Below, one piece after another: positions 5,915 through 62,905 of a DNA stretch of 64,000 bases. A program made the position numbers and the translations under genes. The notes beneath the pieces were generated by a model that ran no database searches, was not told the origin of the DNA, and worked only from the letters and a program-made list of their open reading frames with translations. Location: the NCBI GenBank assembly GCA_002403855.1, contig DHIO01000026.1:183627-247626 (forward strand), given 5' to 3'. Every line of letters begins with the position of its first letter. Within the stretch, counting starts at the first letter, position 1. Origin of the DNA: Acidimicrobiia bacterium UBA4744 (GTDB taxonomy: Bacteria; Actinomycetota; Acidimicrobiia; Spongiisociales; UBA4744).

Positions 5915-6111
5915 GTTCTGCGACTCCCTGGTACCGCTTGGTCGGAGAAGTATCGGTCGATGAGAACGCCGGACTTGAGCACCTCAGCGCCGCGCCGCCG
6001 CTGTGTCGCGACTGCGGCCTAGATCTCATCTCATCCTGCACCGGTCGGATACCCTTCCTCGAGCATGGCAAGCAGCCAAGAACTCCGTTCCGAGCAGCTA
6101 GCGTCCGGATT

Positions 6112-8799: not shown

Positions 8800-10962
8800 C
8801 TATGGATGGACCCGTACCCGCACATCGAGCGCAACCGCCCCCGATCCCGGAGCCAGGACTCGGAGCGGATTGATTTCGATCTCGCCGATGCGCGGATGGT
8901 CGGAGACGAGCCACCCGAGCCTGAGCAACGCCTCCTCCACCGCGGCCGCATCGCCGGGCGGAACACTGCGATGGCCGGGCAAGCGGCGCCCGGCCCAGGT
9001 ATGGGCCAGCAAGTACTCAAAGTCGGAACCGGTCGCCGGGGCAAGGGCAAACTCGACATCGGCGAGGCCTTCCACCTCAACACCACCCGAACCGAACATG
9101 ATCAGAGGACCGAAATGGGGATCGCGGATGCCGCCGACTATCACCTCCTGGCCGCTCTCTACCGTCGACTGCCCGTAGATCACAGCAGGGCCGGTCGCGG
9201 ACCTCTTTGCGAGATCCGCCAACACTGCATACGCAGCCCGAATCTCCTCAGGGTTGGATAGCCCCAGCCGCACCGCCCCCAGCGCAGATTTGTGAACCAC
9301 GTCCGGCAGGTAGAGCTTCAAGGCCAATTCTCCGCCCAGCGCGCCGGCGAACTCCACTGCTTCGTCGGCCGAAGCCACGACCATCCCCGGAGGGGCACCG
9401 ATGCCGTAGGCACCGACAAGCTCGACCCCCTCCTCTGGTCCCAGCCAACCTTGAGAGGCGCCGTCCAACAGACCCGCCGCTCTCGACCGGTCGACGTCCC
9501 CAGGTGCAGGGAGAACGTCGACAACCGAGGTGACTGCTTCCGTCCGATCGGCAAGGGCCGCCAAGGCTGCAGCCGCACGTTCGGGAAATGGGAAGTCCGG
9601 AACCCGGGATGCTCGGAAGATCTCGATGGCGTTCCCGACGGCCCGGCCACCCATCACCGCCACGAGCACCGGTTTGGACGACGAGCGAATGACCGGCACC
9701 AGAGCTTCGGCAACCTGATCAGCCGTAAACATCGGCGGAGGTGGAAACACGACGAGTACCCCATCGACCTCGGGAGCCGATACGAGCGTCCCCAGGCACC
9801 GGGCAAAGACCTTCGGATCAGCCGACGCCAGCATGTCGACAGGATTGGCCAGACCCGCTACGTCGGGCAGGGTAATCGCCAGCTCCCGTCGGGTTTCCTC
9901 CGATAGTTCCGCCAGCACCAGACCACCAGCCTCGAGAGCGTCTGCTGCCGCAACTCCCGGACCGCCGGCGTTGGTGAGAACGGCCATGCGCCGCCCCGAC
10001 GGCAGCGGCGCCCAGGCCAGAGCCCGGGCTGCGTCGAGCATCGCCTCGGTGGTAGCCGCCCTGATGAGGCCGGCTCGCCGGAAGGCGGCCTCGAAAGCCC
10101 CCTCTCTCCCGGCCAGGGCTCCTGTGTGAGAAACGACGGCGTTCCGGCCACCCTCGGACCCGCCTGCCTTCAGGGCGACGACGGGTTTCGTCATTCGAGC
10201 GACCTCATCCACAAACCTCCGTCCGCCGGCGACGGTTTCTAGATACATGGTCACGACCCGGGTGGCTTCGTCGACCGCCACCATCTCGAGTGCCTCTACC
10301 TCGTCGATATCGGCTTGGTTCCCAAGGCTGACCAACCTCGAAACGCCGAATCCCTGCCCGGCCGACCAATCGATCACGGCCGCGCAGATCGCGCCGGAAT
10401 GAGATACGAAGGCCACCTCGCCGGGCTCCGGGCCCGGCGGAGCAAGGAAAGTGGTGTTGAGACCCAGGTGGGTGTCGATGATTCCGATGCAATTCGGACC
10501 CAACACTCGGATCCCGAGTTCCTGGGCAATGCCGACACACTCCGCCTCCAGGGCTGCTCCGGTCGGGCCGGTTTCCCCAAACCCGCCCGAGACGATGATC
10601 ACCGCTGTGATGCCACGCCGTCCGCAATCTCTCAAAACGCCCGGTACCAAACCCGCCGGCACCAGCACTACGGCCAGGTCGACCGGATCGGGTACCTCAT
10701 CCACCGCCGCGTAGACCTCCCGTTCGAACAACGAACCGGTGAGATGCGGGTTGACGAAGTGAACGGCGCCGGAGAACTCGCCCCCCGCCAGGTTGCGGGC
10801 TGTCCCGTATCCCAGTTTCTTCGGATCCCCGGAGGCTCCGACCAGCACCACCCCGCGGGGGTTGAAGAAGAGGTCGAGGGTTTGGTCCGCTACGGGCACG
10901 GGTAGGTGCTCCTCCGCTGCTGGCACGCATGGTAGGTGATCAGATGATCGGCCACTCCCCAT
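8800..10962 (-). CDS. acetate--CoA ligase family protein (ADP-forming; CoA-binding + succinyl-CoA-ligase-like + ATP-grasp)
   Basis: VVLVGASGDPKKLGY CoA-binding Rossmann. SHSGA and VSHTGALAG ligase-CoA motifs. C-terminal ATP-grasp. The first ~160 aa of the 881-aa track ORF are Arg/Ser/Pro junk opposite a real + strand gene, so the start was trimmed to ATG 10962 (GTG 10926 is also possible). Confidence 0.85.
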   Translation of the reverse strand: MGSGRSSDHLPCVPAAEEHLPVPVADQTLDLFFNPRGVVLVGASGDPKKLGYGTARNLAGGEFSGAVHFVNPHLTGSLFEREVYAAVDEVPDPVDLAVVLVPAGLVPGVLRDCGRRGITAVIIVSGGFGETGPTGAALEAECVGIAQELGIRVLGPNCIGIIDTHLGLNTTFLAPPGPEPGEVAFVSHSGAICAAVIDWSAGQGFGVSRLVSLGNQADIDEVEALEMVAVDEATRVVTMYLETVAGGRRFVDEVARMTKPVVALKAGGSEGGRNAVVSHTGALAGREGAFEAAFRRAGLIRAATTEAMLDAARALAWAPLPSGRRMAVLTNAGGPGVAAADALEAGGLVLAELSEETRRELAITLPDVAGLANPVDMLASADPKVFARCLGTLVSAPEVDGVLVVFPPPPMFTADQVAEALVPVIRSSSKPVLVAVMGGRAVGNAIEIFRASRVPDFPFPERAAAALAALADRTEAVTSVVDVLPAPGDVDRSRAAGLLDGASQGWLGPEEGVELVGAYGIGAPPGMVVASADEAVEFAGALGGELALKLYLPDVVHKSALGAVRLGLSNPEEIRAAYAVLADLAKRSATGPAVIYGQSTVESGQEVIVGGIRDPHFGPLIMFGSGGVEVEGLADVEFALAPATGSDFEYLLAHTWAGRRLPGHRSVPPGDAAAVEEALLRLGWLVSDHPRIGEIEINPLRVLAPGSGAVALDVRVRVHP

Positions 10963-11086
10963 CCGATCATGGTTCCCGGGGTGGGTTGAACCGCGCTCGC
11001 CCTGATGAACGACTCTTCTTCTCCTCCTAACCGTTTGCTGACAATCGCCGGCGACGCTGGTCACGACGCAGAGAAAGGAGACAACC

Positions 11087-11557
11087 ATGCGTCTCAGGAA
11101 AGCCATTGCCGTCGTCATGCTCGTCGCCCTGCTATTGGTGGCGCTTTCGGCGGTCGCGCTTGCCGACGGCGAGGCCACAGTGGCCGGCAGCGGGTGGTTG
11201 GCGGCTCGGGGCACCGGAACCGCCACGCTCGACATGGGCGGCTGGATCAAGATGAGAGTCCAGGGAGACGTGACCATCAACGACTTCGACGGCAACCTCG
11301 AGGTCCGGGTCGCCTCATCGGAATCCGCCCTGGACCGAGCCGACCCCCGACGCGGGCCCGAGATCGTGCTCGAGGATTTCGACGGGTACCTGGCGGCCAG
11401 AGGTGACCATTTCCTGTTGCGAGCCGACGGCTCGATGAAGTTCAAGGCCCACGGACACGGGTTCGCCTACCTGGAGGGTGAGGGGGTCTACAAGACCCGG
11501 CGCGGCCCCGTCCGCTGGTGGGACGACGCGCTTGCGGGTCTCGACCTGGCCGCCTGA
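11087..11557 (+). CDS. secreted hypothetical protein with internal duplication
   Basis: Signal peptide MRLRKAIAVVMLVALLLVALSAVALA. Two related segments: GWLAARGTGTATLDMGGWIKM... and GYLAARGDHFLLRADGSMKF... GGAGA lies upstream of the ATG. Confidence 0.6.
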   Translation: MRLRKAIAVVMLVALLLVALSAVALADGEATVAGSGWLAARGTGTATLDMGGWIKMRVQGDVTINDFDGNLEVRVASSESALDRADPRRGPEIVLEDFDGYLAARGDHFLLRADGSMKFKAHGHGFAYLEGEGVYKTRRGPVRWWDDALAGLDLAA

Positions 11558-11650
11558 TCGTCCGCAGTCCTTCCCGCCGGTCGGCCGGCCCCTGCCCGTG
11601 ATCGGATCCCGGGCGGGGGCCATCCTCCCGTAGCGAGTACTCTCTGTGCG

Positions 11651-12508
11651 ATGTATGAGCTCGAACCGGTCGAAAACCTTGTTGCGCCTGCTCTGATCGT
11701 CGCGTTTCAAGGGTGGGTCAATGCCGGCAACGTGGGAACGGAAGCGTCAGATCACATCGTGGCCGAAGGCGCTGCCGTTGCCACTTTCGATCCGGACGCC
11801 CTCTTCGACTATCGATCAAACCGGCCCATCATCGATTTTGTCGACGGCCGACTGGAAGAGGTGAGCTGGCCATACCTCACGCTCCGCCGAGCCGAATACG
11901 CCCGCCGCGACGTCCTCGTGCTCAGCGGTAGCGAGCCGGATTGGCAGTGGAAGGCTTTCGGCCGATCTGTGGCCGACATCGCCACAACTTTGGGCGTTGT
12001 CGAGGTCGTGTCGCTGGGAGGCGTCCCCGCTGCGACCCCACACACCTACCCGACTCCACTCCTGACCACCGCTTCCCGGCCAGACTTGATCGGCCCAGAT
12101 GAGCAGCTCCCGGAAGGCCTGCTGCGAGTACCGGGAGCGGCAGTCAACATCGTCGAACGGGCCCTCACTGATGCCGGAATCCCGGCGGTTGGGTTCTGGG
12201 CTCAGGTACCTCACTATGTGGCCGGCACCTACTACGCCGGGGCAGTCGCGCTGATCGACCGGGCGGCTCGCCATCTCGGCATCACCATACCCCTGGACGA
12301 CCTGGTCGACCGGGTTGCCGAACAGCGCCAGCAGTTGGACGCGACCGTCGCGGCCCAACCGGACTCGCAGGCCTATCTGGAACGGTTGGAATCCATGGCG
12401 GCCGCCCAGGGCGAGATTCCCTCGGCCGACGACATAGCCGCCCAGGTGGAGAGATTCCTCCAGGATGCCGCCGAGGGGGAAGAGCCGTTCGGCCCCGGCG
12501 AAGGTTGA
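11651..12508 (+). CDS. PAC2 (proteasome assembly chaperone 2-like) family protein
   Basis: N-terminal LIVAFQGWVNAGNVG. Length and acidic C-terminus are typical of actinobacterial PAC2 proteins. Confidence 0.78.
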   Translation: MYELEPVENLVAPALIVAFQGWVNAGNVGTEASDHIVAEGAAVATFDPDALFDYRSNRPIIDFVDGRLEEVSWPYLTLRRAEYARRDVLVLSGSEPDWQWKAFGRSVADIATTLGVVEVVSLGGVPAATPHTYPTPLLTTASRPDLIGPDEQLPEGLLRVPGAAVNIVERALTDAGIPAVGFWAQVPHYVAGTYYAGAVALIDRAARHLGITIPLDDLVDRVAEQRQQLDATVAAQPDSQAYLERLESMAAAQGEIPSADDIAAQVERFLQDAAEGEEPFGPGEG

Positions 12509-12642: not shown

Positions 12643-14088
12643 TTGAAGGCAATCGTTGTTGGCGCCGGCGGTACTACTCGCGACTTGCTGCGACGTCTTG
12701 GTGACCTCTGGGACGTGACCGTCATCGACACAGATGACGAGCGGTTGGCCCTTGCAGCCGAGGTTCGCAACATAGCAGTAGTTCGGGGGGACGGCTCGTC
12801 ACGAGTCATCCTGGACCAAGCGGGGTTGCGCCAGGCCGACGCACTCGTGGCCGCCTCGAACAGCGACGCAGTGAACCTGGAAGCATGCCGCCTGGGCCTC
12901 GACCGGGGCGTCTTGCGGGTGGTTGCCGTCGCCGCCGATCCTGAACAGTTGAGCGACTATCGGGAACTGAAGCTCCCGGTCTTCTCTCCGGATCGACTCA
13001 CCGCGAGGAGAATCGAGATCAATCTCGAGCCGCGCCGCGTCGACTCGGCTGCTTTCGCTGACGGCATGGCCGAAGCAATCGAGTTCCGCATCGCCTCCGA
13101 CTCGCCGCTGCGGGGACGGGCACTCAGGGACCTCCACTCTGAGAGCTGGTTGGTTGCAGCAATCCTGCGCGAGGGCCGCCTCATCGTCCCGCACGGCGAA
13201 TCCGTCTTGCAGACCGATGACCGGGTCACCGTGGTTGGAGCGGCTTCCGACTTCTCCACGATCGTACGAACCTTCTCGACTGCCGAGGCTCGGTTCCCGA
13301 TCGATTTTGGGAAACACGTAGCGGTGTGGATGGAGAGCGAGCAGGATCTATCCGGACCCGTTGAAGAAGCCTTCACCATCACTCGCAACAGTGCGGCCGA
13401 GTCACTGCTGGTGGTCCGACCCGACCCCGCATCCCTTCGGGATGAGTCTCAAGCCGAAGTTCTGCACCGGCTTGTCGAGGAAGCTACACAGGGCCACGAG
13501 GGCGTCGACGTGGTCATCCGCGATGTAGATCCCGCCCAGGGCGAGGACCTGCTGTCTATTGCCGAGTCCGCCAACGTCGGTGTCTTGGTGTCTGCTCAGC
13601 CCGGCGGTGGACTGCCGGTGCGCAGGCGCCGGCTCGGCAAGCTTCTCAACGCTGCGTCCAGAGTGAACCTCCCGGTGCTCCTAGCCTCCGGACAACACCC
13701 CTACCAGCGGATTGTTGCCCCCGCCCGAGAAACTCCGGCGGGTCGGGCCGCAGGGCGAGTAGCCATCGACTTGGCCGTTCACGCCAACCTGCCGATCATC
13801 GGTGTCGCGGTGGTACCCCCGGCCTTCATTGCCGGAGAGGACGTCAGAGAGGAAGCTCTCCGCGCTGTGGCACGACTCCGGGAAGAAGCGGCCGTCCAAG
13901 GTGTCACCGTGAGGCGCCGAATCCGCCAAGGCAATCCTGTTCGCGCACTTCAGGAAATGGTGGGTTCTGGTGGTCTACTGGTTCTCGGCTATCCGCGCCA
14001 TAACCCGACAACGATGGTACCGGGCATCGTCGGACACGTCGTTGAACGCTCAAATTCTTCCATCCTGCTTGTTCCGTCCGAGGAATGA
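12643..14088 (+). CDS. TrkA-N/RCK-C domain protein fused to tandem universal stress protein (USP)-like domains
   Basis: KAIVVGAGGTTRD GxGxxG Rossmann. RCK_C-like IEFRIASDSPLRGRALRDL...DDRVTVVG. Then two USP-like alpha/beta units ending ...VVERSNSSILLVP. TTG start with GAGGAG upstream. Confidence 0.78.
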   Translation: MKAIVVGAGGTTRDLLRRLGDLWDVTVIDTDDERLALAAEVRNIAVVRGDGSSRVILDQAGLRQADALVAASNSDAVNLEACRLGLDRGVLRVVAVAADPEQLSDYRELKLPVFSPDRLTARRIEINLEPRRVDSAAFADGMAEAIEFRIASDSPLRGRALRDLHSESWLVAAILREGRLIVPHGESVLQTDDRVTVVGAASDFSTIVRTFSTAEARFPIDFGKHVAVWMESEQDLSGPVEEAFTITRNSAAESLLVVRPDPASLRDESQAEVLHRLVEEATQGHEGVDVVIRDVDPAQGEDLLSIAESANVGVLVSAQPGGGLPVRRRRLGKLLNAASRVNLPVLLASGQHPYQRIVAPARETPAGRAAGRVAIDLAVHANLPIIGVAVVPPAFIAGEDVREEALRAVARLREEAAVQGVTVRRRIRQGNPVRALQEMVGSGGLLVLGYPRHNPTTMVPGIVGHVVERSNSSILLVPSEE

Positions 14089-33567: not shown

Positions 33568-35604
33568 CTACGGCCGGGACTCGGTCTGGTCGGTCTCCAC
33601 CGAGGTGGACGGTTTCGCAGGAGTTTGGTCGAGCAAGCGAACGAAAGCGTCGAGGGAGCGTGGATTGGCCATGGCGTCACGGCGCACTGCTTGCTCGACA
33701 GGGATCCCGGCCAGGATTCGCTTCACCGGCACCTCCATTTTCTTGCCGTTCAACGTCAGCGGAACCTCGTCGATTCGGTAGATCTCGTCCGGCACGTGAC
33801 GGGGTGAGAGCTCCTCCCGCAAGGCATGCTTGATTCGCCGGCGGAGCCGATCATCGATCTCCACCCCGGCGGCGGGCACAAGGAACAACAGAAGGCGACC
33901 TTCTCGTCCCAACCTCCCGGTGTCGATCACCATGCTGTCCAAGACCTCCGTGAACCCATCGATCACCTGATAGAACTCGCTGGTGCCCATGCGGATGCCA
34001 CCCCGGTTGAGGGTGGAATCGGACCGTCCGTACACCACGCACGACCCGTCGGGATGGATCGAGATCCAGTCGCCGTGCCGCCACACCCCCGGGTACATCT
34101 CGAAGTAGCTGGATCGATAACGCTGCCCTCCGGGGTCGTTCCAGAAGTAGATGGGCATCGAAGGCATGGGAGCGGTGATGACCAACTCGCCCACCTCCCC
34201 GATCACCGGAGCACCGTGCTCGTCATAAGCCTCGATCTTCGCTCCAAGCTGCCGGCACTGGATCCGGCCGGCGCGCACCGGGAGCAGCGGGCAGCCGCCC
34301 AGAAAGGCGGTACAAAGATCCGATCCGCCGCTTATCGAAGCCAAGAGAAGGTCGGACCCCACCTCTTCGTACACCCAGGCGAACCCGTCGGGAGTGAGTG
34401 GAGCGCCGGTGGATCCTACGCTCCGCAGAGCACTCAGATCCAACCACCGGCCCGGATGGAGGCCGGCCCGCCTGCAGGCCTGGAGGTAAGGAGGGCTGAC
34501 GCCGAAGTGGGTCAGCTTCCCGGACTCGGCCAGCTTCCAGAGCACCAAAAGATCCGGATGGCTCGGGCTGCCGTCGTAGAGCACCACGGTCGTACCAACC
34601 AGAAGGCTCGAGATGAGGAGATTCCACATCATCCAGGCAGTCGACGTGTACCAAAAGAACCGGTCGCCTTCGCCGACATCGACGTGCAACGCCAATTCCT
34701 TCATGTGCTCGAGAAGGATGCCTCCCTGGCTCTGGACAATCGGTTTGGGCAGACCGGTGGTGCCCGAGGAGTAGAGAACCCACAAGGGGTGGCCGAAAGC
34801 CACCGGTTCGAACGTCAGTCGGTCGGAGGTGTGGACCAGATCGTCCCATGAGAGAGCACCGGCGACCGACCCCGCCGTGCGGTCGAGCCGGGATACCAAG
34901 ACGATTGCCTCCAGTGTCGGCAGCCGGGAGACGATCTGGGTGAGCACCTCCCGACGGTCGTGCTCTCGCCCGGCGAACCGGTAGCCGTCACAGGCGATCA
35001 AGACCTTCGGTTCGATCTGAGAGAACCTGTGCGCCACACTCTCGATACCAAATTCCGGAGCGCAGCTGGTCCATACGGCACCAAGGCTGGCCGTAGCGAG
35101 GAACGCGATCAGGGTCTCTGGAATGTTGGGTAGCAACGCTGCGACCCGATCACCCTTCACGACGCCGAGCCGGCGCAAGCCGGTGGCCGCCGCCGCCACC
35201 CGATCGTGGAGCTCGGCAAAGGTGAGTTGTTGGAAAGCCCCGTCCTCGGCCGCGGCGATCACGGCGAGGCGCCCGTCCCGGCGCCGCAGAGCATGCTCGG
35301 CGTAGTTGAGCTTTGCTCCCGGGAACCACTCGGCTCCGGGCATGGCTCGGTCGGGAAGCACGGCTTCGTGAGGTGCATGAGCAATGATCCCGAAGTACTC
35401 CCAGAGTGACCCCCAGAATCCGTCGAGATCGGACACCGACCATTCCCAGAGCGCCGTGTAGTCGGAGAACTCGAGTCGTCTCTCGGTCCGCAACCAGGCG
35501 AGATAGCGGGTGATGCCGGCTTGCGCAAGGGACTGTGCAGTGGGTTCCCACAGCAGGGTTCCGTCGATGATGTTGGAATCTTGCATCGATCCAACCATGG
35601 ACAC
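33568..35604 (-). CDS. acetoacetate--CoA ligase (acetoacetyl-CoA synthetase)
   Basis: N-terminal LWEPT...YLAWL...F.DY.ALWEWSVSDLDGFWGSLWEYF signature. AMP-binding YSSGTTGLPKPIV. Length ~678 aa. Confidence 0.85.
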   Translation of the reverse strand: MSMVGSMQDSNIIDGTLLWEPTAQSLAQAGITRYLAWLRTERRLEFSDYTALWEWSVSDLDGFWGSLWEYFGIIAHAPHEAVLPDRAMPGAEWFPGAKLNYAEHALRRRDGRLAVIAAAEDGAFQQLTFAELHDRVAAAATGLRRLGVVKGDRVAALLPNIPETLIAFLATASLGAVWTSCAPEFGIESVAHRFSQIEPKVLIACDGYRFAGREHDRREVLTQIVSRLPTLEAIVLVSRLDRTAGSVAGALSWDDLVHTSDRLTFEPVAFGHPLWVLYSSGTTGLPKPIVQSQGGILLEHMKELALHVDVGEGDRFFWYTSTAWMMWNLLISSLLVGTTVVLYDGSPSHPDLLVLWKLAESGKLTHFGVSPPYLQACRRAGLHPGRWLDLSALRSVGSTGAPLTPDGFAWVYEEVGSDLLLASISGGSDLCTAFLGGCPLLPVRAGRIQCRQLGAKIEAYDEHGAPVIGEVGELVITAPMPSMPIYFWNDPGGQRYRSSYFEMYPGVWRHGDWISIHPDGSCVVYGRSDSTLNRGGIRMGTSEFYQVIDGFTEVLDSMVIDTGRLGREGRLLLFLVPAAGVEIDDRLRRRIKHALREELSPRHVPDEIYRIDEVPLTLNGKKMEVPVKRILAGIPVEQAVRRDAMANPRSLDAFVRLLDQTPAKPSTSVETDQTESRP

Positions 35605-37605: not shown

Positions 37606-39561
<1,956 letters not shown>

Positions 39562-51390: not shown

Positions 51391-51738
51391 CTACCCTGCT
51401 CTGAACACCATCCCGTAGAACGTGTCGTAAGCGCTCTTGCGGACTGGTTTCACTTCACCGCGAACCGCCATGCCGATCCTGGGATCATCTACTTCGAGTT
51501 GTCCGGTGATTCGGAGGCCGTTCTCCAGCTCGACGATCCCCAGTCCCAGCGTCGGTACCTCGAACTCGGCCGGAAGGTTGTAGACCTTCGTGAAGGTCAG
51601 CAGCTTGCCGGTCTTCGGTAGGGGCACGAGGTCGAAGTCGAAGAAGTCGTTCTGACGGCATTCCTTGCACACCATTCTGAACGGATAGTGCAGGCGCCCG
51701 CACTTGCGGCACCGGTAGGCGTAGATATCTCGGATCAT
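51391..51738 (-). CDS. Zn-ribbon/OB-fold protein (DUF35 family)
   Basis: CRKCGRLHYPFRMVCKEC four-Cys ribbon followed by an OB-fold-length segment. ATGA overlap with the thiolase-like gene. Confidence 0.85.
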   Translation of the reverse strand: MIRDIYAYRCRKCGRLHYPFRMVCKECRQNDFFDFDLVPLPKTGKLLTFTKVYNLPAEFEVPTLGLGIVELENGLRITGQLEVDDPRIGMAVRGEVKPVRKSAYDTFYGMVFRAG

Positions 51739-52913
51739 CGCCCCTCCCTCACAAAGGTCAGGCACACAACGTTGTTGCCGAAGCCACCAAAATTGCAGGT
51801 GAATCCCACTTGGGGTCCGTCTACCTGGCGGTCGCCGGCTTCACCCCGGAGCTGGGTGACGATTTCGTGGGCTTGCGCAACTCCCGTAGCGCCCACGGGA
51901 TGCCCCTTCCCTTTCAACCCGCCGGACGGGTTGATCGGCAGTGACCCGTCTATCGCCGTTTCACCCTTCTCGAGAGCGACATGCCCTTCACCTTTCGGGA
52001 AGAAGCCGACCTCCTCGCTCTCGACGATCTCGAGAATGGTGAAGGCATCGTGTAGTTCCGCGACATCCACGTCCTCCGGCCTCAAACCGGCCATCTCGAA
52101 CGATTGGGCGGCCGCTCGGCGCACGGCCAACAGGTCGGTAGGCTCTTCTCTTTCGTGCACCGCATGGGTATCCGTTGCTTGACCGACCCCGGCCAGACGG
52201 ATCAGAGGGCGATCGATGGTCTTGGCCACGTCATCCGATACCAGGATGACGGCCGCTCCTCCATCCGACACGGGACACGCATCGAAGAACCGCAGGGGCT
52301 CGGCAACGTAGGGGTTGTTGGTCATGGCCTCCGGCGAGTCGAGGATGCCCTCAATCGTGATCGGTTGGTGCAGATGGGCGAACTCATTCAGCATGGCGTT
52401 GTTCTGGTTCTTGACCGCCACCATGGCGAGATGGCGCTCGGTGAGCCCGTACTTCTCCATATACAGGCGGGTGAACATCGCCGCGTGAGACGGCAACGTG
52501 ACCCCGTAGATGTACTCGGCCAGAGGGTGAGTGAGCGTGGCGACAAAATCCGTCGCTTCGAGATTGTTGACCTCCCGCATCCGCTCCGCACCGCTGACCA
52601 AGACCACGTCGTGGAGCCCGGACGCAACCGCCGCGAAGCCGGCCTTGAGGGCGGAAGCTCCCGAGGCCGGCCCGTTCTCGATCACCGCCGCGCCGGCCGG
52701 GGTAAGGCTCAGACTGTCCACCACGGCACTGGCCAGAGCCGTTTGGTGGTTCACTCGGGCGCTACCCATGTTGGCCACGTACAGGTGATCAACGTCCCTG
52801 ATACCCGCATCCTTCAGAGCCATCATCGCCGGGTAGGCGGCTATCTCGGACAAGGGGTACTCGAGACGCGTGAACGTAGTGATACCGATGCCTCCTACGT
52901 AGACGTCACGCAT
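51735..52913 (-). CDS. thiolase-like protein (SCP-x/nsLTP type), nucleophile Cys apparently replaced
   Basis: MRDVYVGGIGITTF start and C-terminal GHPVGATG and TCNFGGFG motifs. The segment expected to be N-x-C-A-S-G reads ENGPASGASA. The start was trimmed from the 459-aa track ORF to ATG 52913. Confidence 0.82.
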   Translation of the reverse strand: MRDVYVGGIGITTFTRLEYPLSEIAAYPAMMALKDAGIRDVDHLYVANMGSARVNHQTALASAVVDSLSLTPAGAAVIENGPASGASALKAGFAAVASGLHDVVLVSGAERMREVNNLEATDFVATLTHPLAEYIYGVTLPSHAAMFTRLYMEKYGLTERHLAMVAVKNQNNAMLNEFAHLHQPITIEGILDSPEAMTNNPYVAEPLRFFDACPVSDGGAAVILVSDDVAKTIDRPLIRLAGVGQATDTHAVHEREEPTDLLAVRRAAAQSFEMAGLRPEDVDVAELHDAFTILEIVESEEVGFFPKGEGHVALEKGETAIDGSLPINPSGGLKGKGHPVGATGVAQAHEIVTQLRGEAGDRQVDGPQVGFTCNFGGFGNNVVCLTFVREGR

Positions 52914-56531: not shown

Positions 56532-57422
56532 CTACATCAAGTTGGTTCCGTAGGAAGGCCCGGTACCTTCCAGACGTTCTACCGAGGCCTTCAGACCCCG
56601 CTGCAACATGACCTCCGACATTCGCAATCGGTATTCCTTCGTCGCCCGCATGTCGGTGATGGGCAAGATCTCTTCGCGCACGAGCCCCATTGCTTCGGCA
56701 ACCAGCCCCGGGTCGAGCGCCCTGCCCATCAGGAGGGCTTCGATGCGTCTTGCTCGGACCGGCGTAGCGGCTACTGCTCCGAAGGCCAAGCGAAAAAGAT
56801 GGTCGGGAGGCGCCAGGACGGACACGCTGGCCTGAGCCAAGTCCTCACCTTCATACCGACTGAGTCGAACGTAGGCGGCGCCGTGACCGCCCACAGGAAC
56901 CGGGACCACCACCTTGGTCACGATCTCGCCACGGGCGAGCGCCGTCTCTCGAGGGCCGAGAAACCACTCGTGGATCGGAATCCGGCGGGGACCATTCGGT
57001 CCGACGACGTAGACCGCTGCGTCGTACACGAGGAGGACCGGCCCCCCATCACAGGAGGGAACGGCGGAGCAGATATTCCCCACCAGCGTGGCTCGATTGC
57101 GGATCCCGGTGGACCCCACGGTTCCCGCCATTTCATGGATGAGAGGGAGCCGGGTGCGGATCAGCTCCGAGTTGAGCAGATCAGAGAAGGTGACCAACGA
57201 ACCGATGGCGACGGCGTCGCCCTCGTCGACAATGTCGCCTAGACCCTCGATCTGTTTGATATCGACGAGCAAATCCGGGGCGATCGCTTCATCCCGCAGC
57301 CAGGCCACCAGATCGGTACCCCCCGCCAGCACCCGGACCTCTCCGGCGTGCCCGGAGAGCATCCGGACGGCCTCGTCCAGCGTCTCCGGCCGCTGGTAGT
57401 CGAACACCTGGGCGATCGTCAT
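56532..57422 (-). CDS. FAD-binding (CoxM/XdhB-like) medium subunit of the molybdo-dehydrogenase
   Basis: FDYQRPETLDEA...VLAGGTDL PCMH-type FAD-binding start. AAGGAG 6 nt upstream of ATG 57422. Confidence 0.85.
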   Translation of the reverse strand: MTIAQVFDYQRPETLDEAVRMLSGHAGEVRVLAGGTDLVAWLRDEAIAPDLLVDIKQIEGLGDIVDEGDAVAIGSLVTFSDLLNSELIRTRLPLIHEMAGTVGSTGIRNRATLVGNICSAVPSCDGGPVLLVYDAAVYVVGPNGPRRIPIHEWFLGPRETALARGEIVTKVVVPVPVGGHGAAYVRLSRYEGEDLAQASVSVLAPPDHLFRLAFGAVAATPVRARRIEALLMGRALDPGLVAEAMGLVREEILPITDMRATKEYRLRMSEVMLQRGLKASVERLEGTGPSYGTNLM

Positions 57423-57531
57423 ACGACGCTCCTTATCGGTCGTTTTCGCCAAAACTACGCTCTTCGACTGGACCCGTGCGGCCCGCCCGGGGGCCCGACG
57501 AGCCCACTATGGCGCCCGCCCGGCCGCCGGA

Positions 57532-58953
57532 TCAGGCAGCGGCATCATCCGACAACCGCCGAGCCAGCGATTTGACGGCATCTGCGAAACACTCCATCGG
57601 CGCCTCGACCAAGCCGGCGCCGACCATGCCCACCCCTGCTTCCTTGCCTGCTATCCCGGTATTGATTTGCGGAAGAACGCCGGTGCGGGCCACCAACGTG
57701 GCGTCGATCCCGGTGGGCGTGCCCCGGAACTCGAGGATGGGAATCTGGTACGAGGGATGTTCCGCCATGGTGATCTCGTACATGGCCAGGGTCCGCTGGA
57801 CGGCGCCGGCGGCCGTGCCGCCGACAAACCCGACGATGGCCGGCGAGGCGGCCATCGCGAAACCGCCCAGACCGATCGTCTCGGTGATGGCCGAATCCCC
57901 GATGTCCGGATTGGCATCGTCGGCGGTAAACGACCCCAGGTACAATCCGTCCACGACGGGTGCCGGGGCCGTGAACCAACGGCCGCCGGTCCCCGAGACT
58001 CGGATCCCGAACTCCGTCCCGTTGCGGGCCATCGTGGTGACGAGGCTGGAGTACTCGATCCCGGATGCGGCATCAACGATCAGCTTCCCTGCCGCCATCA
58101 CCACGTTGAGCATGAAGTGGTCGTTCGAGTCGACGAACGAATAGACCGCCGAACGATCGGCCACCGTTGCGACATCACTCTCGACCAGAGCCGCGCCGAT
58201 TGCCCTGAGCAGCAGTGAGGTGCCGGCCCGGTTGCGGTTGTGCCCATCGTCCCCCATCTGCAGCGCTTGTGCAATCAACGATCGAAGGTCGAGCGGTCCG
58301 GATCGGCGCAGAGCATCACCTATCACCGGCCCGAGTACCCGCTCCATCCACCGGAGCCGGTCGATGACCTCGGGCGCATACGCACCGTATCGGAGGACTT
58401 TGCCCAGGCCTTCGTTGAGAGTCGAGTAGGCCACCCCCCCGGTGGCGGGATTCTCAACCACCAGAACGGGCATGGAAGGGCTGATGACGCCGGCCATGGG
58501 ACCAGCCGCCCGGTGATGGTGGCAGGGAGAAAGCTCTACCCCCCCGGCCGCCAGCTTGGACGCCGCCTCCTCGGGTGTGGCGGCGAGTCGCTCATAGAGC
58601 ATGGCACCTATCAGAGCGCCCCGCATCGGTCCGCTGGCCTGTTCCCAGGAGAGCGGAGGTCCGGCGTGGAGAAAGGTTCGCCCGGCAAGACCGGGTACCA
58701 CCTCGCCGGCCGGGAGCACATCCACCAGATGGGGACGAACTTCGAGTAACCGGGCGATGGCAATCTCATTGGCTTCCGCGACCTTCGGACTGGCAGCGAG
58801 CCCTGCCAGAGCTACTTCCGTTCCGCCGAACGGTGGACGCCAATCGATCCTGTGCACTGCGACGCTTTGAGCGCCGAGCGCGGCAGCGAGCACCTCGATC
58901 CCGGCCGTCACGACCACCGGCTCGGCGTGGAGAAGACGTTCGAGCTCACCCAT
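57532..58953 (-). CDS. DUF1116 protein (YlbE/AllG-like)
   Basis: LHAGPP, PCHHH..AGPMAG, NEGLGKVLRYGAY, GDSAITETIGLGG and INTGIAGKEAGVG blocks match my memory of E. coli YlbE along the whole length. ATG 58953 overlaps the FdrA stop by 8 bp. Confidence 0.8.
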   Translation of the reverse strand: MGELERLLHAEPVVVTAGIEVLAAALGAQSVAVHRIDWRPPFGGTEVALAGLAASPKVAEANEIAIARLLEVRPHLVDVLPAGEVVPGLAGRTFLHAGPPLSWEQASGPMRGALIGAMLYERLAATPEEAASKLAAGGVELSPCHHHRAAGPMAGVISPSMPVLVVENPATGGVAYSTLNEGLGKVLRYGAYAPEVIDRLRWMERVLGPVIGDALRRSGPLDLRSLIAQALQMGDDGHNRNRAGTSLLLRAIGAALVESDVATVADRSAVYSFVDSNDHFMLNVVMAAGKLIVDAASGIEYSSLVTTMARNGTEFGIRVSGTGGRWFTAPAPVVDGLYLGSFTADDANPDIGDSAITETIGLGGFAMAASPAIVGFVGGTAAGAVQRTLAMYEITMAEHPSYQIPILEFRGTPTGIDATLVARTGVLPQINTGIAGKEAGVGMVGAGLVEAPMECFADAVKSLARRLSDDAAA

Positions 58954-60379
58954 CGGCCACCTCATCGACCATCGACACTGCATGACGCGCTGCTGCAGCG
59001 TTGGACAGCCAGACGGCCGCCCCGGCCTCGTTGAGAACCCGGGCCTGTCGATCACGGTCCTGGGGGTCGCCGTTGGTTCCACAGAGCGATACCACCACTG
59101 CGGCCCCTTCCGCAGCAGCGTCGGCGATCACGGGAGCAAGTTCGGAGGCCGGATCGGGGTGAGCCCCGTGCCCGAGAACGACGTCGAGCAAGATGACGCC
59201 GACGCGAGAGTCGCGACCCGCCGCGGCCAGACGCTGCAGTCTCAACCGCTGGTCGATCATCGGGTGCGCCCGCCCGCGGGTGTATTCGTCCTCTCCATAG
59301 TCGATGATCGTGTGGCCGGCGCCTCGTTCCTCCCGGCCGACCTCCCCCAAAGCGCCGACCGCCAAGCCGACGGCCTCACTGCCGAGACTGCCACCGGAGA
59401 AGAGACCTCTGAGCACCCCCGGCCGATGGCCGTCCGTCGGGGCCGGCCAGGAGGCATAGGCGGGCACAGCTTTGCCGAGTAGATCGAGCGTCCGGCCGAC
59501 TGCTCCCTCCAGGGTTACTCCCTCTTCGCCGAGATAGGCGAGCACGGTCGGTGTCACGCATTCCGCGGCGGCCGCTCGAACGCGTTCGGCTACCTCCGGA
59601 GCGGGCGGTTTCGAGGCCACGATCAGCACTTCGGTGCTGGGATCGGCGTCCAATGCCTCCAGTCCCCGCAAAGTGGACAATCCCCCCACTTCGACGGAAA
59701 GGTCGTGGCTTCCGGTGCCCAGGGCGTTGCGAACACCGACCCCGGCATCATCGAGCAGACAGCAGAGTTGCTGGATCCCGGTCCCGGCCGCACCAACGAT
59801 GCCGACCGGGCCGGGTTGCACCACGTTGGCGAACCCGAGCCCGACTCCGTTGACGATGGCGGTACCACAGTCGGGGCCCATGACGAGAAGGCCCAACCGG
59901 TCGGCCGACCGTTTCAGCTGAACCTCCTGAGCGATCGGGACGTTGTCGCTGAACACCATCACGTCGAGACCATGCCGGAGAGCATCCATAGCTTCGACAA
60001 AAGCATGCTCTCCCGGAACCGAGATCAACGCGAGAGTGGCTTCCGAGGCGACGGATCCGATCACATGCGCGGCCGGCGTGGCCAGCATTGGGGAGTCCCG
60101 TACGGCTTTCGCGACCAGAGCCTCCTGCAAGATGAGACGGGCATGAGCCACGGCCGGTTCGTCCACGGCTCGCACCGCGATGATCAGGTCGTTGGGTCCG
60201 GCCGCAGCGATCGCTTCCGGATCGAACCCCATCTCTGCCAGCAGATCACAATTGAGGTCGGTCGCCATCGCCACCAATGCCTCTTCGACTCCAGCAGCCT
60301 GTTGCAGAGCCCGGCTTGCTTGCATGAGCCGCACAGAGTCGTGGTACGTGCCGCGCCGAACCTCAACATTGTCGATCAT
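58946..60379 (-). CDS. fdrA: FdrA/AllF-like protein (succinyl-CoA-synthetase-alpha-like)
   Basis: The N-terminus ...RRGTYHDSVRLMQASRAL... is like E. coli FdrA. Central CoA-ligase-like GPDCGTAI and GIVGAAGTG motifs. Confidence 0.85.
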   Translation of the reverse strand: MIDNVEVRRGTYHDSVRLMQASRALQQAAGVEEALVAMATDLNCDLLAEMGFDPEAIAAAGPNDLIIAVRAVDEPAVAHARLILQEALVAKAVRDSPMLATPAAHVIGSVASEATLALISVPGEHAFVEAMDALRHGLDVMVFSDNVPIAQEVQLKRSADRLGLLVMGPDCGTAIVNGVGLGFANVVQPGPVGIVGAAGTGIQQLCCLLDDAGVGVRNALGTGSHDLSVEVGGLSTLRGLEALDADPSTEVLIVASKPPAPEVAERVRAAAAECVTPTVLAYLGEEGVTLEGAVGRTLDLLGKAVPAYASWPAPTDGHRPGVLRGLFSGGSLGSEAVGLAVGALGEVGREERGAGHTIIDYGEDEYTRGRAHPMIDQRLRLQRLAAAGRDSRVGVILLDVVLGHGAHPDPASELAPVIADAAAEGAAVVVSLCGTNGDPQDRDRQARVLNEAGAAVWLSNAAAARHAVSMVDEVADG

Positions 60380-61206
60380 CTCGCAAGGAACTCCCCGGCC
60401 AGGAGAATGCCGCAGGCCGTCGCTATCCCCGACGAGTCGCCCATTCTGTACAGACCCATGACGGCGGCACCGAGATCACCTCTCCCGGTGAGCACCTGGA
60501 AGAAGGCCGCAACCGGATCGGCTACTTCTCCGGCCACCGCGTGACGAAGCAATGCCGCCGACAACGCCGTAGTGCGGAAGGGCGCCTCAGTGAGAACGAC
60601 GGGGGCTATCGCCGCAAGCATCCCACCGGCGCCGGGGGCCCCAACCGCCGGGCCCAGCAAGCGCAAGCCGGCCAACAAGCCGGCCAGCACATCGTCCCCT
60701 TCGGGCGTGAGTCCTTCGCCCTTCCCGAGCAGGGTGCACATGGCATGGCGAACGGCGGCGGGATCGTTCCTCTTCAACGACCGCCCCAGGCCCCCGTCTT
60801 CGACACACGCCAACAGGGGCCGGGCGGCCGCGCATCGTGCGGCCAGTGCCTCCGTAGTCGTTGGCTCCAGCGAGGGTCTCGGATCCCACCAGCGAATGAC
60901 ATTGGCCTTCACGCCCCCCATGCTGAGTCCGCCATCACCGACCACACACCGTTGTCCGGATGGGGAGCGGAGTTCATCGACCCGTTCCGTCACGGTGACC
61001 CCGTTGGGCAGACGGATGGCGTTGCGCCCCGAGAGGACTAGGACATGCCCGCCCGCCTGCAGCCAGGCGGCGTTGGACGAGACTCCCAGCAACACCCCGG
61101 GTTTGGAGGGGCCCTCCAGCAGATGGCGGACCCCCCGACTCGCCGCTGCCGGCACCGAAGCAGACGATGCGAATTCGGTTCCGGCCGTGTGCTGTCTGGC
61201 GCCCAT
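60376..61206 (-). CDS. DUF2877 protein (YlbF/AllH-like)
   Basis: GKGEGLTPEGDDVLAGLLAG motif typical of DUF2877. 4-bp overlap with the FdrA-like gene. It starts 10 nt after the barbiturase-family gene ends. Confidence 0.7.
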   Translation of the reverse strand: MGARQHTAGTEFASSASVPAAASRGVRHLLEGPSKPGVLLGVSSNAAWLQAGGHVLVLSGRNAIRLPNGVTVTERVDELRSPSGQRCVVGDGGLSMGGVKANVIRWWDPRPSLEPTTTEALAARCAAARPLLACVEDGGLGRSLKRNDPAAVRHAMCTLLGKGEGLTPEGDDVLAGLLAGLRLLGPAVGAPGAGGMLAAIAPVVLTEAPFRTTALSAALLRHAVAGEVADPVAAFFQVLTGRGDLGAAVMGLYRMGDSSGIATACGILLAGEFLAR

Positions 61207-61216
61207 CGGTCGAGTC

Positions 61217-62317
61217 TCAGCCGAGGTCGACGATGGCCGCTACCGGGCCGCCCCCGGAAGGCCCCTGGTGGATGGCCGCCACCGACACGAAAACTGCTGG
61301 ATCGCCGACGGCGGCCGCTACGACGCCGCCCACGGCTCCCTTGATGTGGCGATGGTGGTGCACGTCGGAGTCGTCGAGTGCCACCTGACGGCGTCCGCGC
61401 AGCTTGGCAGTCGGATCAGCCTCGCACTTCACGAATACGTTGACGAGCCGACCGTTGAGGTCCGTCGATCTCGCCCGCTCGGGAAGGTCGAGCCCAGCCG
61501 ATCGGATGGCGTCGTACACGGCCTCCAAGTCGAGGGCGTCCTTCATGACACTATGACCTATCCGATACCGCCCTCCCGCACCACGTACGTTGCCTACCAC
61601 CACCGTCTGGGCCCGATCGAGTTCGACACCGGACGAGCACGAAGCCACCGACGAATACAGCGACAGATCGTGGCCTATCTGCCGCTCCGCGGGAACGGTG
61701 CTCAGCTCGCCCAGCGCGTATCCGATACCGAGTCCCGAGGTCCCGTTGGAGATGTTCATAGACTCGAGTGGATCCTCGGTCACGACGGTATGCCCGCGCG
61801 ACTTGGCATCGTTGATGGTCTCCATCGTCAGAAGCGGTGTCTTGGTCTGCACGTAATGGACGTCGGCGGGGTCCGCGATGCCGGCTTCCTTCATTGCTTG
61901 TTTGACTCCCTCGGCGACCTTTTCGACCATCGCCGGCCGGCCGATGTCCTCGGGGAAGATGACCTCGCTCATGGAGTAGCCCACCGCCAGACGCGGCTCT
62001 CCCGAGGGGCTGGCATCGTCGGCTACCCGGGCAAACACCGTCGCATGAGGAGTGAGAACGCCGTCGGTTCCACCCGACCACACCATCGGGATCTCCTTGA
62101 CCACGTCGAGAGGCCGGGTTCCCATTTCCATCAGCACATCACGGAATGCCCGGTCGGCAAGGATCCTGGTGAAGTCATTGACTCCGCCGTTGCCCTCGGT
62201 CTTGCCGACGACGGCGATCACTTCGTCGGCGCCGAATACCCCTTCCTCGATCAGCGACTTCAATCCCGAGGCATCGGCGACGCTCTCGAGAACGACCTTG
62301 CGCACTTCGATAGTCAT
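61217..62317 (-). CDS. ring-opening amidohydrolase, barbiturase/cyanuric acid hydrolase (AtzD/TrzD) family
   Basis: [16 protein letters not shown] motif. Three-fold internal architecture with Ser/Lys contexts. 366 aa from ATG 62317, with GGGGGAGAG SD. The 597-aa track ORF is a 5' over-extension. Confidence 0.85.
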
Positions 62318-62467
62318 TACCGCTCTCCCCCGCAGTATCACGCCCGCCCGCCGTAGACCGTCAGGACGGATGCCATATGCACCAATACTCAGGCATGAGA
62401 GCGCCCGACAATAGAGAACAAAGACCCCTCCAACCTGCGGTTGGTCCGTCTGTGCCAGGCTGGGGGT

Positions 62468-62905
62468 ATGGACGCCTATCTGGAAGCAGCGATCGAAGAG
62501 GCAAGGGCCGGAATGGAGGAAGGAGGCATCCCCATCGGCTCCGTACTCGTCATCGACGGCGAGATCATTGGCAGAGGTCACAACCGTCGGGTGCAACGCG
62601 GCAGCCCCATTCTCCATGCCGAGATGGACTGCATAGACAACGCCGGCCGGCTGGAGGCCTTCGACTACCGACGAGCCGTGCTCTATTCGACGCTGTCCCC
62701 TTGCGACATGTGCAGCGGGGCCGTCCTCCTCTACCGAATCCCGAGAGTCGTCGTCGGCGAGCATCGAACGTTTCGCGGCCCCGAGGACTACCTCCGCTCT
62801 CGGGGGGTTGACATCGACATTGTCGACGACCCCACCTGTGTGCAACTGATGGAGACGTTCATCGCTACCCGGCCCGGGTTGTGGAACGAGGACATCGGCG
62901 AGTAG
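62468..62905 (+). CDS. cytosine deaminase, yeast Fcy1-type (CDA fold)
   Basis: HAEMD ... [11 protein letters not shown] zinc motif, VVVGE, and C-terminal [11 protein letters not shown] closely paralleling yeast Fcy1 (...RPQDWFEDIGE) as I remember it. ATG 62468 was preferred to TTG 62441. Confidence 0.85.

Follow-up and report, generated by a model that had tools for sequence, protein, structure and literature searches.

A barbiturase-led operon of an Acidimicrobiia bacterium and a proposed phosphorolytic, urea-free last step of oxidative pyrimidine catabolism

A 64-kb stretch of the genome of Acidimicrobiia bacterium UBA4744 (contig DHIO01000026.1 of assembly GCA_002403855.1; hereafter the window) carries a barbiturase-family gene followed directly by genes of the DUF2877, FdrA and DUF1116 families (the trio), the three families that make up AllFGH of Escherichia coli. 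The region is probably the front of an oxidative pyrimidine-catabolism operon. We consider it likely that the trio is part of the barbiturate branch and produces carbamoyl phosphate and, by a smaller balance of probability, sequence comparisons favor the specific reaction ureidomalonate + Pi -> carbamoyl phosphate + malonamate. Knowledge of the oxidative pyrimidine pathway at the biochemical level dates from the 1950s; to our knowledge barbiturase is the only one of its steps with a gene, uracil dehydrogenase and the post-barbiturase step being sequence orphans. The trio family is likewise the only one we know of that phosphorolyzes an N-acylurea to carbamoyl phosphate. What is proposed here as new is the substrate and the energy-conserving, urea-free last step; the enzyme family and the pathway were already known.

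The minus strand from 62317 to 51391 holds ten tightly packed genes, with the barbiturase-family gene first and a DUF35 gene last. The first four are as follows.

61217-62317, minus strand: barbiturase-clade ring-opening amidohydrolase, 366 amino acids (aa); PF09663 Amido_AtzD_TrzD, 1.5e-142, full length
60376-61206, minus strand: DUF2877/AllH-YahE-like subunit, 276 aa; PF11392 AllH, 4.2e-20, residues 159-270
58946-60379, minus strand: FdrA/AllF-YahF-like subunit, 477 aa; PF00549 and PF02629, a relative of succinyl-CoA-synthetase alpha
57532-58953, minus strand: DUF1116/AllG-YahG-like subunit, 473 aa; PF06545 AllG, 1.1e-94

The barbiturase gene starts with an ATG at 62317, with a ribosome-binding site (GGGGAGAG) 5 nt upstream. 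It is separated from the DUF2877 gene by 10 nt (61207-61216), and the following genes overlap, DUF2877 with FdrA by 4 bp and FdrA with DUF1116 by 8 bp. An initial annotation of the window had given these coordinates, the gap and both overlaps, all of which were reproduced from the list of open reading frames (ORFs), and had named the FdrA, DUF1116 and DUF2877 families directly after a barbiturase-family gene, with which the Pfam assignments agree. It was right to group barbiturase with the trio but drew the gene set too narrowly, since the trio is only part of a ten-gene operon. A promoter and terminator scan found no promoter-like site, and terminator-like sites were fewer than in shuffled sequence.

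By sequence, the first operon gene belongs to the barbiturase clade and is not a cyanuric acid hydrolase (CAH). Its product is 68% identical to the crystallized Rhodococcus erythropolis barbiturase (PDB 5hwe; 516 bits), against 46-48% identity and at most 320 bits for the CAHs TrzD, AtzD and that of Moorella. The PF09663 match covers model positions 1-358 of 358, and TIGR02714 scores 502 bits. Three Ser-Lys dyads have been defined for the AtzD/TrzD/barbiturase family (PMC4051656), and aligning the window protein with 5hwe shows no change at the dyad residues K39, S81, K159, S228, K297 and S345. The barbiturase subgroup is described as lacking the substrate-binding Arg188 of CAHs (Azorhizobium numbering), with Gln named in its place (PMC4051656). 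At this position we found Ser-Asn-Gly in the window protein, 5hwe and all barbiturase-clade sequences, and Ser-Arg-Gly in the CAHs; the residue in the sequences is thus Asn, not the Gln of that paper. The NCBIfam equivalog name 'cyanuric acid amidohydrolase' (462 bits, cut-off 360) was rejected: barbiturase 5hwe itself scores 478 bits, and because a true barbiturase also passes, the model does not discriminate. Barbiturase homologues in metagenomes form at least 8000 protein clusters at E<=1e-30, the best 120 of which are 81-91% identical to the window barbiturase, with the named ones among these labeled Acidimicrobiia.

The trio proteins are 40, 47 and 34% identical to E. coli AllF, AllG and AllH, respectively, the AllH match being limited to the C-terminal 115 aa. 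All four Pfam gathering cut-offs were passed (PF00549, 93.5 bits; PF02629, 29.6; PF06545, 316.5; PF11392, 72.9), with PF11392 covering only the C-terminal ~110 residues of the DUF2877 protein. A hidden Markov model of DUF2877 built from homologues found this gene directly after barbiturase in all Acidimicrobiia loci that extend past barbiturase. The FdrA-like protein matches PDB 3dmy (3.4e-71), is 37% identical to YahF and has the motif Y-T-x-G-R-x-H-P-M-I-D in common with E. coli FdrA. It narrowly misses the NF004760 FdrA cut-off (410.5 against 433 bits), and it is short (477 against 555 aa) because the C-terminal segment sits in the next gene. The product of that gene, the DUF1116 protein, matches PDB 3clq (4.8e-118), and its residues 4-466 align with residues 1-469 of YahG (47%, 422 bits); E. 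coli AllG (47%) aligns only from residue 57 onward, and the window protein thus has the YahG-type N-terminal extension of ~55 aa. Single-chain FdrA-DUF1116 fusions of ~1000 aa occur in the representative library, so that the FdrA and DUF1116 proteins can be regarded as one functional unit.

The first ~55 aa of YahG-type DUF1116 proteins share homology with the C terminus of E. coli AllF. Residues 12-53 of YahG match residues 513-554 of AllF (E=5e-4), and this match together with the full-length YahG alignment argues for a shift of the gene boundary within the family; the direct comparison of the E. coli FdrA C terminus with the N terminus of the window DUF1116 protein scored 43, which is not significant (shuffles: mean 29, maximum 50). 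The label 'AllFGH-like' that the trio had been given therefore holds for the three families, but the gene order and the 473-aa DUF1116 protein with its extension match YahEFG. The order allF-allG-allH-allK beside allECD was not found: the window has DUF2877-FdrA-DUF1116 and no allantoin-pathway gene.

To follow the linkage across genomes, one genome per species was surveyed, which gave 80 barbiturase-clade loci (handles of the type L020 below) at 68-89% identity to the window protein; 51 of these, the full-flank subset, have at least 5 kb on both sides of barbiturase. The closest relatives of the window locus show 89-90% amino-acid identity and place the organism among uncultured Acidimicrobiia. 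The trio, or an FdrA-DUF1116 pair, lies within 10 kb of barbiturase in 27 of the 80 loci, and the ten-gene order is intact in the full-length Acidimicrobiia loci (L002, L003, L007, L009, L013, L017, L018 and L067), with further Acidimicrobiia loci of the window group ending early at contig ends. The core of barbiturase, AllH, AllF and AllG genes is also found without the dehydrogenase that follows it in the window (L083, with no such genes) and with quite different flanks; these four genes therefore travel as a unit. Beyond the window group, the trio or pair adjoins barbiturase in Dormibacterota (L020), Nitriliruptor (L042), Geodermatophilaceae (six loci) and Acidimicrobiales (L033, L072). Counted by lineage, trio-barbiturase linkage covers five within the actinobacteria and, outside them, Dormibacterota. 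Because the adjacency recurs in so many genomes, the linkage is not due to chance.

Most loci of Streptosporangiales and Streptomycetales showed no trio at 10 kb or less from barbiturase. The Nonomuraea gerenzanensis chromosome (11.85 Mb) has its single DUF1116 match 41 kb from barbiturase, and that of Embleya (5.7 Mb) has its single match at 18 kb; in both, AllH-AllF-AllG adjoins a uracil/xanthine permease and genes of a xanthine dehydrogenase (XDH)-family enzyme. The PLSDB entries concerned, NZ_LT559118.1 (N. gerenzanensis) and NZ_CP108785.1 (Embleya sp.), are chromosomes filed as plasmids and almost unannotated.

Carbamate kinase is the commonest neighbor of barbiturase-clade genes. It is found in 36 of the 51 full-flank loci, usually less than 200 bp upstream, whereas the trio is found in 18, both in 7 and neither in 4; 47 of the 51 loci thus have kinase and/or trio. 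The neighboring kinase is of the arcC type (TIGR00746, 341 bits) and passes the PRK12352 cut-off. Kinase and trio occur together in Geodermatophilaceae, Nitriliruptor, Dormibacterota and Embleya, and permease, XDH-family enzyme, barbiturase, trio and kinase are all present in one locus in L020, L042, Geodermatophilus (L087) and Embleya (L092). Without a source of carbamoyl phosphate a catabolic carbamate kinase would serve no purpose, which makes this linkage the strongest comparative argument for the proposed reaction. Judged by the encoded families, the only candidate producer of carbamoyl phosphate in the kinase-bearing loci is the AllFGH/YahEFG-like complex, and the only ureide expected from the encoded enzymes is ureidomalonate. 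As for the window and its nearest relatives, either another part of the genome encodes the kinase or carbamoyl phosphate is drawn into biosynthesis.

The DUF1116 family comprises ~710 clusters at E<=1e-30 in a 50%-identity representative library, and a neighbor-joining tree was computed from 113 near-full-length proteins with 100 bootstrap replicates. All 15 barbiturase-linked DUF1116 proteins fall in one clade of 19-21 taxa (100/100 bootstrap), the clade also holding unlabeled representatives. Its members come from Acidimicrobiia, Nitriliruptoria, Geodermatophilales, Streptosporangiales, Kitasatosporales and Dormibacterota, and E. coli AllG, YahG, the TrzD-linked protein and ~90 other representatives lie outside it. 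In this tree the window protein is not in the clade of E. coli AllG and thus is not its orthologue. The checks proposed with the initial annotation therefore came out in its favor: adjacency to barbiturase is conserved in related genomes, a search for linked carbamate kinase genes placed one near barbiturase in most full-flank loci, and the barbiturase-linked proteins form a clade distinct from allantoin-locus AllFGH.

Scans of ~50 window ORFs with Pfam or NCBIfam, a few of which matched no family, gave no match to amidase-signature, CN-hydrolase, urease, allophanate hydrolase or AA_kinase families, and the operon has no hydrolase-type gene for the ureidomalonase step by the same models. Carbamate kinase queries run by tblastn against the 64 kb likewise found no match. 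The annotators had reported the window to be free of an amidase-type ureidomalonase, urease and allophanate hydrolase, as well as of carbamate kinase and malonamidase; the ORF scans detected none of the former, and with tblastn none recognizable of the latter.

The genes present, their homology, the conserved linkage and the clades are shown by the data, whereas every substrate and reaction of the pathway that follows is inferred from them. Cytosine would be converted to uracil by a divergent deaminase, and uracil (or thymine) to barbiturate by the three-subunit XDH-family dehydrogenase, after which the barbiturase-clade enzyme would open the ring to give ureidomalonate (N-carbamoyl-malonamate). 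The DUF2877-FdrA-DUF1116 complex would then cleave this N-acylurea with phosphate to carbamoyl phosphate and malonamate, a reaction that is the one-methylene homologue of oxalurate + Pi -> oxamate + carbamoyl phosphate. Because FdrA is related to succinyl-CoA-synthetase alpha, it may perform an acyl-phosphate-forming half-reaction in which the amide nitrogen of malonamate leaves instead of coenzyme A (CoA). Carbamoyl phosphate could yield ATP, NH3 and CO2 via carbamate kinase or enter biosynthesis. The C3 remainder would pass through malonyl-CoA to acetyl-CoA by CoA-dependent enzymes, which in the window may be a GNAT-fold protein with thiolase and DUF35 proteins, and elsewhere a family-III or family-I CoA-transferase with a carboxyltransferase, joined in some cases by a CN-hydrolase. 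Candidates for the malonamidase step are this CN-hydrolase and the GNAT-fold protein.

The remaining operon genes, and a gene divergent from the operon, supply candidates for these steps.

62441-62905, plus strand: cytidine/dCMP-deaminase-family gene, 154 aa, divergent from the operon; PF00383, 2.7e-22
56532-57452, minus strand: flavin adenine dinucleotide (FAD)-binding subunit of an XDH-family molybdoenzyme; PF00941 and PF03450
56052-56528, minus strand: [2Fe-2S] subunit of the same XDH-family dehydrogenase; PF01799 and PF00111
53680-56055, minus strand: molybdopterin subunit of the same XDH-family dehydrogenase, 791 aa; PF01315, PF02738 and PF20256
52906-53664, minus strand: conserved protein with a predicted GNAT fold, 252 aa; no Pfam or NCBIfam match
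51735-52913, minus strand: archaeal-type thiolase-domain protein, 392 aa; PF22691 and PF00108, NF004720 389.7 bits
51391-51765, minus strand: DUF35/ChsH2-type OB-fold and zinc-ribbon protein; PF01796 and PF12172, start codon uncertain

All three XDH-family subunits score below the NCBIfam equivalog cut-offs, the best match of the molybdopterin subunit being XdhA at 512 bits against 780; it is therefore not an orthologue of a named enzyme. An identity as xanthine dehydrogenase was considered but not adopted, as no named specificity is supported for any subunit. In related loci the three genes adjoin Xan_ur or NCS1 permeases and cytosine-deaminase-like amidohydrolases, a context that fits a candidate uracil/thymine dehydrogenase; no reference sequence for uracil dehydrogenase was found for comparison. 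The same divergent deaminase gene is present in L001, L002 and L082, and its product is a candidate cytosine-to-uracil enzyme feeding the pathway. In more distant loci this step appears to be filled by a non-homologous replacement, an amidohydrolase-superfamily, cytosine-deaminase-like gene (L020, 2081-3340; L072, 20110-21096).

For the highly conserved 252-aa protein, 2831 homologues were retrieved, every one labeled 'hypothetical'. Its AlphaFold2 model (pLDDT 70.8, pTM 0.72) has a GNAT (acyl-CoA N-acyltransferase) fold, with the GNATs RimJ, PatZ and PA3270 as best Foldseek matches in the PDB (E ~1e-6), and the protein possibly processes the C3 product. Homologues at 36-37% identity are encoded close upstream of barbiturase in L020 (Dormibacterota; 268 bp) and L072 (Acidimicrobiaceae; ~1.8 kb), and the protein thus accompanies barbiturase in more than one phylum. 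In these two loci a carboxyltransferase gene stands in place of the thiolase and DUF35 genes of the window, between the GNAT-fold gene and barbiturase in L072 and ~6 kb downstream of barbiturase in L020. The thiolase is 79-93% identical across syntenic Acidimicrobiia loci, and the DUF35 equivalent of L082 has 116 aa and overlaps the thiolase stop. DUF35 proteins are the usual partners of archaeal-type thiolases. The pair ends the operon; HMG-CoA synthase, which normally completes such a set, is absent, its position being taken by the GNAT-fold gene. Elsewhere in the window, a Sir2-family deacetylase gene (5938-6873, plus strand) lies close to a gene for an 881-aa protein (8800-11445, minus strand) with CoA_binding, Succ_CoA_lig and ATP-grasp domains (ADP-forming acyl-CoA synthetase/Pat-like), and there are two acetyl-CoA-synthetase-like AMP-binding genes (33568-35604 and 37606-39561).

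In actinomycetes, the genes near the carbamate kinase-barbiturase pair include family-III CoA-transferase (18 loci), carboxyltransferase (11 loci) and CN-hydrolase (21 loci), a set found in Streptosporangiales and Streptomycetales (L022, L023, L039, L041, L043, L056, L091, L092 and others). In Embleya the CoA-transferase, carboxyltransferase, kinase and barbiturase genes follow one another as a string of four, and Geodermatophilus has a two-subunit family-I CoA-transferase in place of the family-III enzyme. The CN-hydrolase is a candidate malonamidase or hydrolytic decarbamoylase. Barbiturase in L054 and L074 is immediately preceded by genes for hydantoinase A/B, an ATP-dependent ring-opening amidohydrolase family, and in L079 such genes also precede it at a short distance, separated from it by a GST gene; neither trio nor carbamate kinase is nearby in these three loci. 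L065 has a like-sized gene pair where L054 and L074 carry hydantoinase A/B, and the Nonomuraea region also contains hydantoinase A/B genes (L091, 20577-24378). In L070, the ORF after barbiturase (11171-12490, at a contig end) matches carbamate kinase and, weakly, the AllH model (E=1e-11), and may encode a kinase-DUF2877 fusion.

Several observations weigh against the proposed reaction. Gene neighborhood cannot settle the substrate of the trio. Carbamate kinase is missing from the 64-kb window and from within 10 kb of barbiturase in the closest relatives, and no recognizable malonamidase is encoded in the operon. All three genes are required in E. coli, yet the Geodermatophilaceae loci L051, L063, L064, L066, L069, L080 and L087 have FdrA-DUF1116 with no detectable DUF2877 in the fetched sequence. 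(L087 also has an unannotated 202-aa gene, 12897-13505, with no family match.) The CN-hydrolase in many Streptosporangiales loci could act hydrolytically on the ureide. The downstream operon genes are all CoA-dependent, which would also suit a CoA-ligase-type role of FdrA. Finally, ureidomalonate was reported to give urea and malonate in classical work on Rhodococcus (Soong et al. 2001, cited in PMC3758960).

The last of these points bears on one alternative, in which an unrecognized operon member, or an enzyme from another part of the genome, hydrolyzes ureidomalonate to urea and malonate or removes its carbamoyl group hydrolytically, with the trio accessory or unrelated. Besides the classical Rhodococcus result, the CN-hydrolase near the kinase-barbiturase pair in 21 loci and the functionally unassigned GNAT-fold protein would suit it, and a ureidomalonase without a known sequence would escape detection by homology. 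Such hydrolysis would, however, leave both the commonest barbiturase neighbor, carbamate kinase, and the trio-barbiturase operons across phyla unexplained, and no urease was found in any locus with annotated genes; we consider it unlikely. About as improbable, in our judgment, is that the trio is an acyl-CoA-synthetase or CoA-transfer enzyme, which would activate the carboxyl of malonate, malonamate or ureidomalonate, or yield malonyl-CoA and urea via malonyl phosphate, and so feed the GNAT-fold, thiolase and DUF35 proteins. FdrA proteins are usually annotated as being of acyl-CoA-synthetase type. The window FdrA bears CoA_binding and Ligase_CoA domains and resembles succinyl-CoA-synthetase alpha, every downstream operon gene is CoA-dependent and the window is without carbamate kinase, all of which speak for such a role. 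Yet carbamate kinase dominates the barbiturase neighbors and is found along with the trio, separate CoA-transferase genes lie next to the trio in other lineages, and there is no urease to use the urea. Moreover, the sole characterized member of the family, AllFGH, is a transcarbamylase for which the available portion of its description reports no CoA or nucleotide requirement (PMC11326118).

The trio might instead be a carbamoyl-phosphate-forming transcarbamylase acting on N-acetylurea (a decarboxylation product), allophanate, biuret or another ureide. The family is linked to TrzD, atzF, biuH and trtA contexts with differing ureides, carboxyltransferase genes adjoin barbiturase in several lineages and context cannot fix the substrate, but ureidomalonate is the only ureide expected from the encoded enzymes, the barbiturase and AllH genes are 10 nt apart in a module that moves as a unit and the clade is separate from the TrzD-linked protein. 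We hold the chances of this alternative to be small, and smaller still those of an ordinary, oxalurate-specific oxamate transcarbamylase next to a xanthine dehydrogenase, with barbiturase adjacent by accident. The established family membership, the 40-47% identity to E. coli AllFG and the presence of xanthine dehydrogenases in the XDH family agree with that last reading. It is opposed by the barbiturase linkage kept across lineages, the clade apart from E. coli AllG (100/100 bootstrap), XDH subunits that all fall under xanthine-dehydrogenase equivalog cut-offs and the window itself, among whose scanned ORFs there is no uricase, allantoinase, allantoicase or ureidoglycolate dehydrogenase. None of these alternatives explains the carbamate kinase linkage together with the clade structure as well as phosphorolysis of ureidomalonate by the trio.

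The operon and its relatives give testable gene candidates for all steps of the oxidative pyrimidine pathway, and the comparative data suggest that in most barbiturase-bearing Actinobacteria the ureido group may leave as carbamoyl phosphate, not urea. If this is true, the cell would gain one ATP per ring, the pathway would be freed from urease and the three-subunit transcarbamylase family would extend beyond oxalurate. It would also offer clues to E. coli YahEFG and to the fdrA-DUF1116 genes beside trzD in s-triazine degradation clusters. As barbiturase homologues are numerous in metagenomes, the route may matter for environmental nucleobase nitrogen turnover. The energy-conserving pathway variant had been put forward as, to the annotators' knowledge, undescribed, and the searchable literature yielded neither such a step nor a paper on barbiturase linked with fdrA/DUF1116 or carbamate kinase.

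Compared with the classical Rhodococcus pathway, for which Soong et al. reportedly described the uracil/thymine dehydrogenase, barbiturase and ureidomalonase of R. erythropolis in 2001 and 2002, the window has a barbiturase orthologue (68% identical) and an adjacent molybdo-flavo-iron-sulfur dehydrogenase that suits the first step. The nucleobase permeases and cytosine-deaminase-type genes of related loci likewise suit pyrimidine catabolism. The difference lies in the last step, which is hydrolytic in the classical pathway (urea and malonate) and would be phosphorolytic here (carbamoyl phosphate and malonamate). We know of no published ureidomalonase sequence and no ureidomalonase gene turned up in searches; replacement of that enzyme is therefore not demonstrable by homology.

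The closest functional precedent is E. coli AllFGH with its carbamate kinase AllK. AllFGH was purified and assayed, and it interconverts carbamoyl phosphate + oxamate and oxalurate + Pi (Kim & Kim 2024, PMC11326118). The window has the same three families and the phosphorolysis of an N-acylurea is expected to be alike, although the proposed substrate, ureidomalonate, has one methylene more than oxalurate. The partnership with carbamate kinase is alike in other barbiturase lineages, whereas the kinase is not in the window. The genes are arranged F-G-H-K beside allECD in E. coli and H-F-G beside barbiturase and the XDH-family dehydrogenase in the window, and a segment of ~55 aa forms the C terminus of AllF in the former and the N terminus of the DUF1116 protein in the latter.

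The window trio has the gene order of E. coli YahEFG (DUF2877-FdrA-DUF1116) and a DUF1116 protein of YahG length and architecture. There, yahE-yahF-yahG, a second set paralogous to allFGH, is followed by yahI (carbamate-kinase-like) and yahJ (amidohydrolase), and the logic of the locus resembles that of the barbiturase loci: ring amidohydrolase, trio and carbamate kinase. The two differ in that YahG is in a clade other than that of the window DUF1116 protein, YahE has no BLAST match to the window DUF2877 protein, and the partner YahJ is of the amidohydrolase superfamily whereas that of the window is a Toblerone-fold enzyme. Neither a YahI-like carbamate kinase nor a YahJ-like amidohydrolase was found in the window by ORF scans and tblastn; a YahJ-like amidohydrolase (24% identity) is encoded in L020. 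The literature search returned no functional study of YahEFG.

A further parallel is the cyanuric acid route, in which the TrzD/AtzD homologue is 48% identical to the window protein, the ring is cyanurate and the product is carboxybiuret or biuret. Two TrzD loci, on pSR8 (Aminobacter; L093, NZ_CP062120.1 59842-73654) and pKqs_SB610_3 (Klebsiella; L089), encode a TrzD 100% identical to the PDB 5t13 sequence and have the order hypothetical-fdrA-DUF1116-trzD-arcC-amidohydrolase-transporter-DUF2877. The amidohydrolase is cytosine-deaminase-like, the transporter is BMP/ABC, and atzF lies upstream in the Klebsiella locus; no paper was found on a role for fdrA-DUF1116 next to trzD. The known steps after TrzD/AtzD (BiuH or AtzEG, AtzH, AtzF) are hydrolytic. 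TrzD yields carboxybiuret, the analogue of ureidomalonate in which NH replaces CH2; loss of its terminal carbamoyl group as carbamoyl phosphate would leave allophanate, the substrate of AtzF. The TrzD-linked genes thus suggest a phosphorolytic route for carboxybiuret or biuret. In comammox bacteria and ammonia-oxidizing archaea, allFGHK has been found beside biuret and triuret hydrolase genes (2025 metagenomics, PMC12625717).

The trio family appears, then, to recur beside enzymes producing N-acylureas, and since TrzD too is flanked by fdrA-DUF1116 and carbamate kinase, the partnership looks general. As a tentative extension, which we rate as possible though somewhat short of probable, a phosphorolytic FdrA-DUF1116(-DUF2877) carbamoyltransferase with carbamate kinase could be a general, previously unrecognized partner of Toblerone-fold ring-opening amidohydrolases. 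This would hint at a function of YahEFG-type systems, supply gene candidates for the sequence-orphan steps of oxidative pyrimidine catabolism and provide urea-free, ATP-yielding routes, in which the terminal carbamoyl group would leave as carbamoyl phosphate from ureidomalonate in the case of barbiturate and from carboxybiuret in the case of cyanurate.

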